A program made the translations under genes and the position numbers. From Bacteroidota bacterium (GTDB taxonomy: Bacteria; Bacteroidota; Bacteroidia; UKL13-3), in contig JAIXWD010000016.1 of assembly GCA_027482225.1 (NCBI GenBank), positions 142,050-206,049 on the forward strand: a DNA stretch of 64,000 nt, in the 5' to 3' direction. The notes beneath the pieces are model-generated. The model was not told the origin of the DNA and ran no database searches. It saw only the letters and a list, made by a program, of their open reading frames with translations. Positions 46,357 to 46,502 of this stretch are shown here, one piece after another. Each line of letters begins with the position of its first letter. The first letter of the stretch is position 1.

Positions 46357-46502
46357 TTCATCCCCAGATTTAAATTCTTTAACAAGAGCTTTTGATGCGA
46401 TATACTGTTTTAAATTCTCATCAAACTGAGGATAATATTTATTTAATAACTATAATGTGTTATTCATGTTATAGTGGTAAATGATTTAATCGTAAAGATT
46501 TA

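Follow-up and report, generated by a model that had tools for sequence, protein, structure and literature searches.

Whether a gene is short by nature or has been shortened is a question raised by the Crp/Fnr-family regulator on the minus strand of the 64-kb stretch of DNA from a freshwater Bacteroidota genome analysed here (the window, to which all positions refer unless another record is named). The longest canonical open reading frame (ORF) at this locus encodes 174 aa (45832..46356, minus strand), and in the same frame a further ATG lies upstream of it, separated from it by a single TAG. If the short ORF is the remainder of a longer gene, the TAG could be a recent nonsense mutation, a sequencing error or a codon that is read through, which are the three options named in the preliminary description of this DNA.

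Reading frame and surroundings of the regulator gene

The upstream ATG (46467-46465, minus strand) is followed by AAT AAC ACA TTA and the TAG (46452-46450), after which 31 sense codons, LLNKYYPQFDENLKQYIASKALVKEFKSGDE, run up to a tandem ATG ATG (46356-46351). The minus-strand text is ATG AAT AAC ACA TTA TAG TTA TTA AAT AAA TAT TAT CCT CAG TTT GAT GAG AAT … GGG GAT GAA ATG ATG CGA, and from 46356 the regulator frame is open as far as a TAA at 45834-45832. Based on translation, Pfam matches and 211-aa orthologues, the complete ancestral frame (45832..46467, minus strand) consists of 211 codons plus the TAA, with the TAG (46450..46452) as codon 6. Its start codon, Met1 (46465..46467), is common to all close orthologues. 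Codons 7-37 (46357..46449) are stranded on the 3' side of the stop, and the tandem ATG ATG (46351..46356) represents Met38 and Met39, the one place for a canonical in-frame restart; upstream of it as far as the TAG, ATG, GTG and TTG are absent in frame, and the sole near-cognate codon is ATC at codon 23. The amber had already been placed at codon 6 in the preliminary description, which stands, while its restart at Met36/37 and its length of ~209 aa are corrected to Met38/39 and 211 aa (37 + 174, as in the 211-aa orthologues). Met38 heads the 174-aa ORF, and the gene call on the public record of the source genome starts at Met39 and comprises 173 aa. An exact database look-up with the 174-aa product returned no record, the 173-aa form being the recorded one.

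The gene pdxJ, encoding pyridoxine 5'-phosphate synthase (46503..47228, minus strand; NCBIfam NF003626, 354.6 bits against a cutoff of 222; 241 aa in the public gene call), lies 35 nt upstream of the regulator gene. This pdxJ-crp arrangement is kept in the related loci L001-L007 and L029, and pdxJ and rlmB flank the regulator gene in the window's clade. The -7 promoter consensus of Bacteroidota is TAnnTTTG. A match to it, identified by pattern only, is TATTTTTG (47253..47260, minus strand), 25 nt upstream of the pdxJ ATG, and no match to the pattern was found directly upstream of the regulator gene; judged from these promoter patterns, pdxJ and the regulator gene are probably co-transcribed. 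A polar effect of the stop is not expected, since the next gene downstream of the regulator is convergent.

Protein family and orthologues

When the TAG is read through, the protein matches the Pfam family cNMP_binding (PF00027) at residues 30-118 with 40.2 bits (cutoff 27.5) and HTH_Crp_2 (PF13545) at residues 151-209 with 35.1 bits (cutoff 27). The cNMP_binding match of the read-through protein extends over profile positions 2-88 of 89, compared with 12-88 for the 174-aa ORF. An AlphaFold2 model, built on the intact orthologue P0015 (98% identical), has a mean pLDDT of 85 and displays an 8-stranded β-roll sensor domain, a long dimerisation helix and a C-terminal helix-turn-helix (HTH) domain. 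Within residues 1-40, where the pLDDT of the block is 87-94, helices are modelled at residues 2-11 and 17-26 and strands at residues 28-32 and 37-39; in the intact protein, codons 7-37 encode the last part of helix 1, then helix 2 and β1, and the first part of β2. A Foldseek search of the model against the PDB returned 4ev0_D with a TM-score of 0.75 (E=8.6e-15) and a probability of 1.00 for the top matches 4ev0, 3dv8, FNR, NtcA, GlxR and HcpR, and a PDB sequence search found 3dv8 at E=9e-18. The NCBIfam models for CRP, FNR, NtcA and FtrB all scored far below their cutoffs, with 30.8 bits against 266 for the CRP equivalog (NF008732) and 28 bits against 228 for FNR (NF008365). No cysteine occurs in residues 1-78, so the FNR-type N-terminal [4Fe-4S] cysteine cluster is lacking; two invariant cysteines of the family, C79 and C85, are located within the β-roll. 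By its domains and fold, the regulator is a member of the Crp/Fnr superfamily, and it matches no named subfamily.

Orthologues were inspected in 31 GTDB species genomes, two metagenome contigs and nine further contigs. The species scan, with one genome per GTDB species, yielded 32 related loci, all from Bacteroidota. In 31/31 loci that reach the N-terminus, the same ATG is present and a sense codon occupies the position aligned with the TAG; L008 starts at residue 43 and is too short for this comparison. Codon 6 itself reads GAG in L001, L002 and L005, GAA in L006 and L012, and GCG or GCA in L003, L004, L007 and L029. A metagenome scan in which codon 6 was left free retrieved two contigs, both with GAG, and all 13 close intact haplotypes (three species genomes, one metagenome contig and nine look-up contigs) carry GAG or GCG. 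In an alignment of 52 sequences, position 6 is variable and occupied by E, A, K, Q or S, residues 7-37 are conserved, and F15 and L19 occur in at least 90% of the sequences. Most orthologues keep a Met at position 39. In a set of eight intact orthologues, codons 7-37 have a pN/pS of 0.40, compared with 0.13 for codons 38-211, which indicates that the N-terminus is translated and constrained, less tightly than the rest of the protein. Codons 1-37 are under purifying selection in the intact orthologues. The 174-aa ORF from 46356 had been regarded as short for its family, and this is borne out by the 120 best database homologues, of which 117 have lengths of 207-237 aa; the product of the window itself and two proteins encoded on small contigs are shorter. 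The comparison with orthologues, which the preliminary description had proposed as a test, therefore upholds its central claim that a full-length Crp/Fnr gene has been broken by a single amber at codon 6: the upstream region is conserved, codon 6 is a sense codon throughout, and nearly all of the best homologues are full-length. The upstream extension is likewise an authentic N-terminus that includes the start of the cNMP-binding domain, as had been proposed, given its residue-for-residue alignment with the orthologues and the longer Pfam match.

A different gene neighbourhood was observed outside the window's clade. In L009-L032 (e.g., L010 3941-6272; L014 3669-5457; L019 3707-4792), the regulator gene adjoins sulfur-handling genes in 20/20 loci with enough flanking sequence, namely genes for TauE/SafE (PF01925), a 474-aa fusion of metallo-β-lactamase (MBL) and rhodanese domains, and a split YeeE/YedE transporter (PF04143). 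These neighbours, together with the invariant C79 and C85, suggest that the regulator family may act as a thiol-based sulfur or persulfide sensor of the Crp/Fnr type. Sulfur genes of the TauE, MBL-rhodanese and YeeE/YedE types were not found within the 64-kb window, and a literature search found no paper that connects a Bacteroidetes Crp/Fnr regulator with persulfide dioxygenase or TauE.

Origin of the in-frame TAG

The TAG is most probably the result of a private nonsense mutation, in which a single G>T replaced GAG (Glu), the sixth codon in the nearest relatives, by a stop in the gene of a conserved Crp/Fnr-family regulator of 211 aa. The nearest genomes share 92-93% identity with the window over the 6.1-6.6 kb of the locus, and within the regulator gene the identity is 96%. 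The nearest intact alleles, L041 and L042, differ from the window's allele by 20-21 synonymous and three non-synonymous codon differences (I4T, E6* and D18N). T4 and N18 also occur in the intact L003, and I4T and D18N are therefore normal polymorphisms. Only four nucleotides of the regulator gene are private to the window, the codon-6 G>T and three synonymous changes; no private change is found in the now-untranslated codons 7-37 and no private amino-acid change in codons 38-211. With the rest of the gene free of private amino-acid changes and of further lesions, the mutation looks recent. Had the stop arisen at the base of the terminal branch, codons 7-37 should have accumulated ~2.7 neutral changes, and the probability of observing none is ~0.07 in this low-power test. 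Non-synonymous differences seemed overrepresented in codons 1-37; this was considered as a sign of relaxed constraint after the stop and was rejected, as T4 and N18 are found in the intact L003 and the N-terminus is in any case the most variable part among intact orthologues. Of the three options in the preliminary description, a recent nonsense mutation thus fits best, in view of the single change from GAG and the small number of window-private substitutions.

The other two options can be weighed on the assemblies and on the use of TAG in the window. It is very unlikely that the TAG arose from an error in sequencing, amplification or assembly and that the organism truly has GAG at codon 6. 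The 173-aa product is recorded exactly both from NCBI (483,267-bp contig) and from Logan, with a third contig of the 20-50 kb class also carrying it, and the Logan contig SRR16126869_54 (131 kb), which was assembled independently from raw reads, contains the identical ATG AAT AAC ACA TTA TAG, so that an assembly artefact is unlikely. The two contigs are independent assemblies, but probably share an isolate or sample and are perhaps not independent DNA; the low Logan contig index suggests that SRR16126869 is a simple sample such as an isolate. An error would require a change of one base only, and over 6.5 kb the window and the Logan contig do show three mismatches, clustered at 49200-49207 in an A-rich tract far from the regulator, which would imply small errors in at least one of the two assemblies. 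However, the codon-6 site is outside homopolymers and repeats, the NCBI and Logan contigs concur on it, and short-read assemblies seldom contain consensus substitution errors. Decoding of the TAG by programme, through a suppressor tRNA, pyrrolysine or context-dependent read-through, with the full-length protein still being made, is exceedingly improbable. Nothing positive speaks for it, although the window is only part of a genome and genes for a tRNA-CUA or for pyl functions could lie elsewhere; a tRNA scan and an Rfam scan of the 64-kb window were both empty. TAG terminates 8/40 long ORFs in the window and is therefore a normal stop here; when these TAGs are read through, the next stop follows 2-20 codons on, and gene boundaries are tight, as at the TAG at 50729-50731, which ends 4 nt ahead of the next gene's ATG. 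Moreover, the residue at codon 6 is variable and a stop is absent from this column in all orthologues of the clade, so that nothing conserved is present to be recoded. The only other early stop in the family, a TAA in Pedobacter yonginense, accompanies the deletion of neighbouring target genes, which points to decay.

In P. yonginense KCTC 22721 (L017 2983-4350, NZ_QGNZ01000004), the regulator gene begins with ATG ACC ATT GCG GAA TAA, and the TAA stands at codon 6 of its own frame, in place of the TAC (Tyr) of P. nototheniae. Homology with the sister species breaks off inside the adjacent TauE gene, which encodes 202 instead of 265 aa, and both YeeE/YedE genes are gone from the locus. This stop was rejected as a sign of a programmed feature, since the truncation of TauE and the deletion of YeeE/YedE indicate decay of the whole locus. 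Early stops are thus found in 2/32 genomes, the window and P. yonginense, each at its own codon 6 and upstream of the conserved Met39, and none occurs elsewhere in the gene. Their co-occurrence is a mild coincidence, and it is very doubtful that early nonsense is a recurrent, tolerated or selected route to a truncated, effector-blind regulator starting from Met39.

Several other short copies of the gene, which seemed to begin at the same Met, were considered as parallel TAG alleles and rejected. The copies P0006/L035 and P0129/L040 are both cut by contig ends and are not independent TAG alleles. P0119/L039 is located on a scaffold of 952 nt whose 5' region is degenerate, and P0010/L036 has unrelated sequence upstream of codon 8 on a chimeric or rearranged 1.6-kb scaffold. 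In L036 (ENA ERZ28593318 scaffold_96376, 1-130), from a close relative, the homology breakpoint falls ~4-5 nt 3' of the site occupied by the TAG in the window; this scaffold is probably a chimera joined in the AT-rich stretch TTAAATAAATATT, a rearrangement being the other option. Other environmental alleles appear to be disrupted elsewhere in the gene: P0012/P0014 on a 1782-nt contig is split into ORFs of 99 and 127 aa, which is consistent with an expansion from A7 to A8 in the run that corresponds to window 46194-46200 (codons 91-93), and L037 has a 1-nt deletion near codon 80. Both disruptions could be genuine variants or could stem from errors in short metagenome contigs.

Some further observations concern other genes of the window. 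At 49200-49207, the window contains an A18 run, GAAAAAAAAAAAAAAAAAATAATTG, where Logan SRR16126869 has GAAAACACAAAACAAAAAATAATTG; the three C>A differences change N-T-K-Q to K-K-K-K within the gene of a Por_Secre_tail protein (48967..50724, minus strand), and they represent either an assembly error in one of the assemblies or a strain difference. A giant ORF of 4541 aa (4037-17662, plus strand) has three stretches near its N-terminus that match the catalytic domain of arabinofuranosidase B, together with a G8 domain and a C-terminal T9SS sorting domain, and at least two other proteins with T9SS tails are encoded near the regulator locus.

Consequences for the regulator and comparison with known systems

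If the TAG acts as an ordinary stop, ribosomes that initiate at the ancestral, well-contexted Met1 would terminate after five residues, and the full-length regulator, with its N-terminal helices, β-roll, dimerisation helix and HTH, would no longer be produced. The allele is most likely a null or a strong hypomorph, a loss of function that is deduced from the sequence. The start context was scored with a position weight matrix (PWM) built from 38 window genes, which is small and noisy. On this matrix, Met1 scores 5.27, which places it at the 99th percentile among internal ATGs and at the 87th among presumed true starts, and Met38 and Met39 score -2.53 and -11.05, respectively.

A second possibility is that the stop is real and the gene works in shortened form, with initiation or reinitiation at Met38/39 giving a ligand-blind, constitutive or dominant-negative regulator of 173-174 aa that keeps the dimerisation helix and the HTH. 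This is unlikely, although several features are in its favour. Early amber mutants of E. coli lacI restart at internal codons, Met39 is a conserved residue in most orthologues, and codons 38-211 have acquired no replacement private to this strain; yet such a count of zero is equally expected from mere recency. The predicted RNA structure around Met38 is weak, with a minimum free energy of -2.9 kcal/mol versus a mean of -5.75 for presumed true starts. It was reported that start selection in Bacteroidia proceeds without Shine-Dalgarno pairing, on A-rich, unstructured leaders (PMC6847099), and some initiation at Met38 is therefore possible, as is a truncated product from Met38/39. On the other hand, the contexts of Met38 and Met39 fall only at the 70th and 10th percentiles of ordinary internal ATGs, respectively, and the restart would have to take place 96 nt past the stop. 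An out-of-frame mini-ORF, ATG-AAA-TGA, starts 5 nt upstream of Met38, so that three ATGs in two frames are crowded within 12 nt, and extra AUGs near starts are avoided in the Bacteroidota phylum (PMC6847099). The product, if any, would be missing both N-terminal helices (1 and 2), β1 and a portion of β2, all of which are confidently modelled (pLDDT 87-94); it would retain the β-roll without these strands. Natural orthologues of such length occur only at contig edges or on defective scaffolds.

The private nonsense mutation that is preferred here is an ordinary, strain-specific event, and neither a case of recoding nor a new start. Since the stop lies so early in the gene, gene callers report a plausible protein of 173/174 aa; the "Crp/Fnr family transcriptional regulator" of this annotation is a remnant of a 211-aa gene and deserves to be flagged as disrupted. 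The strain is probably without a regulator that its relatives hold under purifying selection and, if cultured, it would represent a natural knockout that could help to identify the regulon.

The intact protein shares its architecture and fold with known members of the Crp/Fnr superfamily, including Thermus thermophilus CAP (4ev0), the Eubacterium rectale protein 3dv8, NtcA, FNR and Porphyromonas gingivalis HcpR (9day): one or more N-terminal helices, a β-roll of the cNMP-binding type, a long dimerisation helix and a C-terminal winged HTH. It differs from FNR in having C79 and C85 inside the β-roll instead of an N-terminal cysteine cluster, and the window's gene differs from those of the known Crp/Fnr regulators in being interrupted at codon 6. 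In comparison with ordinary nonsense pseudogenes and fresh loss-of-function alleles, nothing sets the window's allele apart: a stop made by a single substitution, a conserved gene that is otherwise intact, intact relatives and the absence of further decay are common to both, and the notable detail is that the stop comes as early as codon 6. The early ambers of E. coli lacI are likewise nonsense codons near the start of a regulator gene in which downstream in-frame starts could give an N-truncated protein. In lacI, the part that is lost is the DNA-binding headpiece and restarts were demonstrated experimentally, whereas in the window's gene part of the sensor β-roll would be lost and the nearest possible restart codon is 96 nt away.
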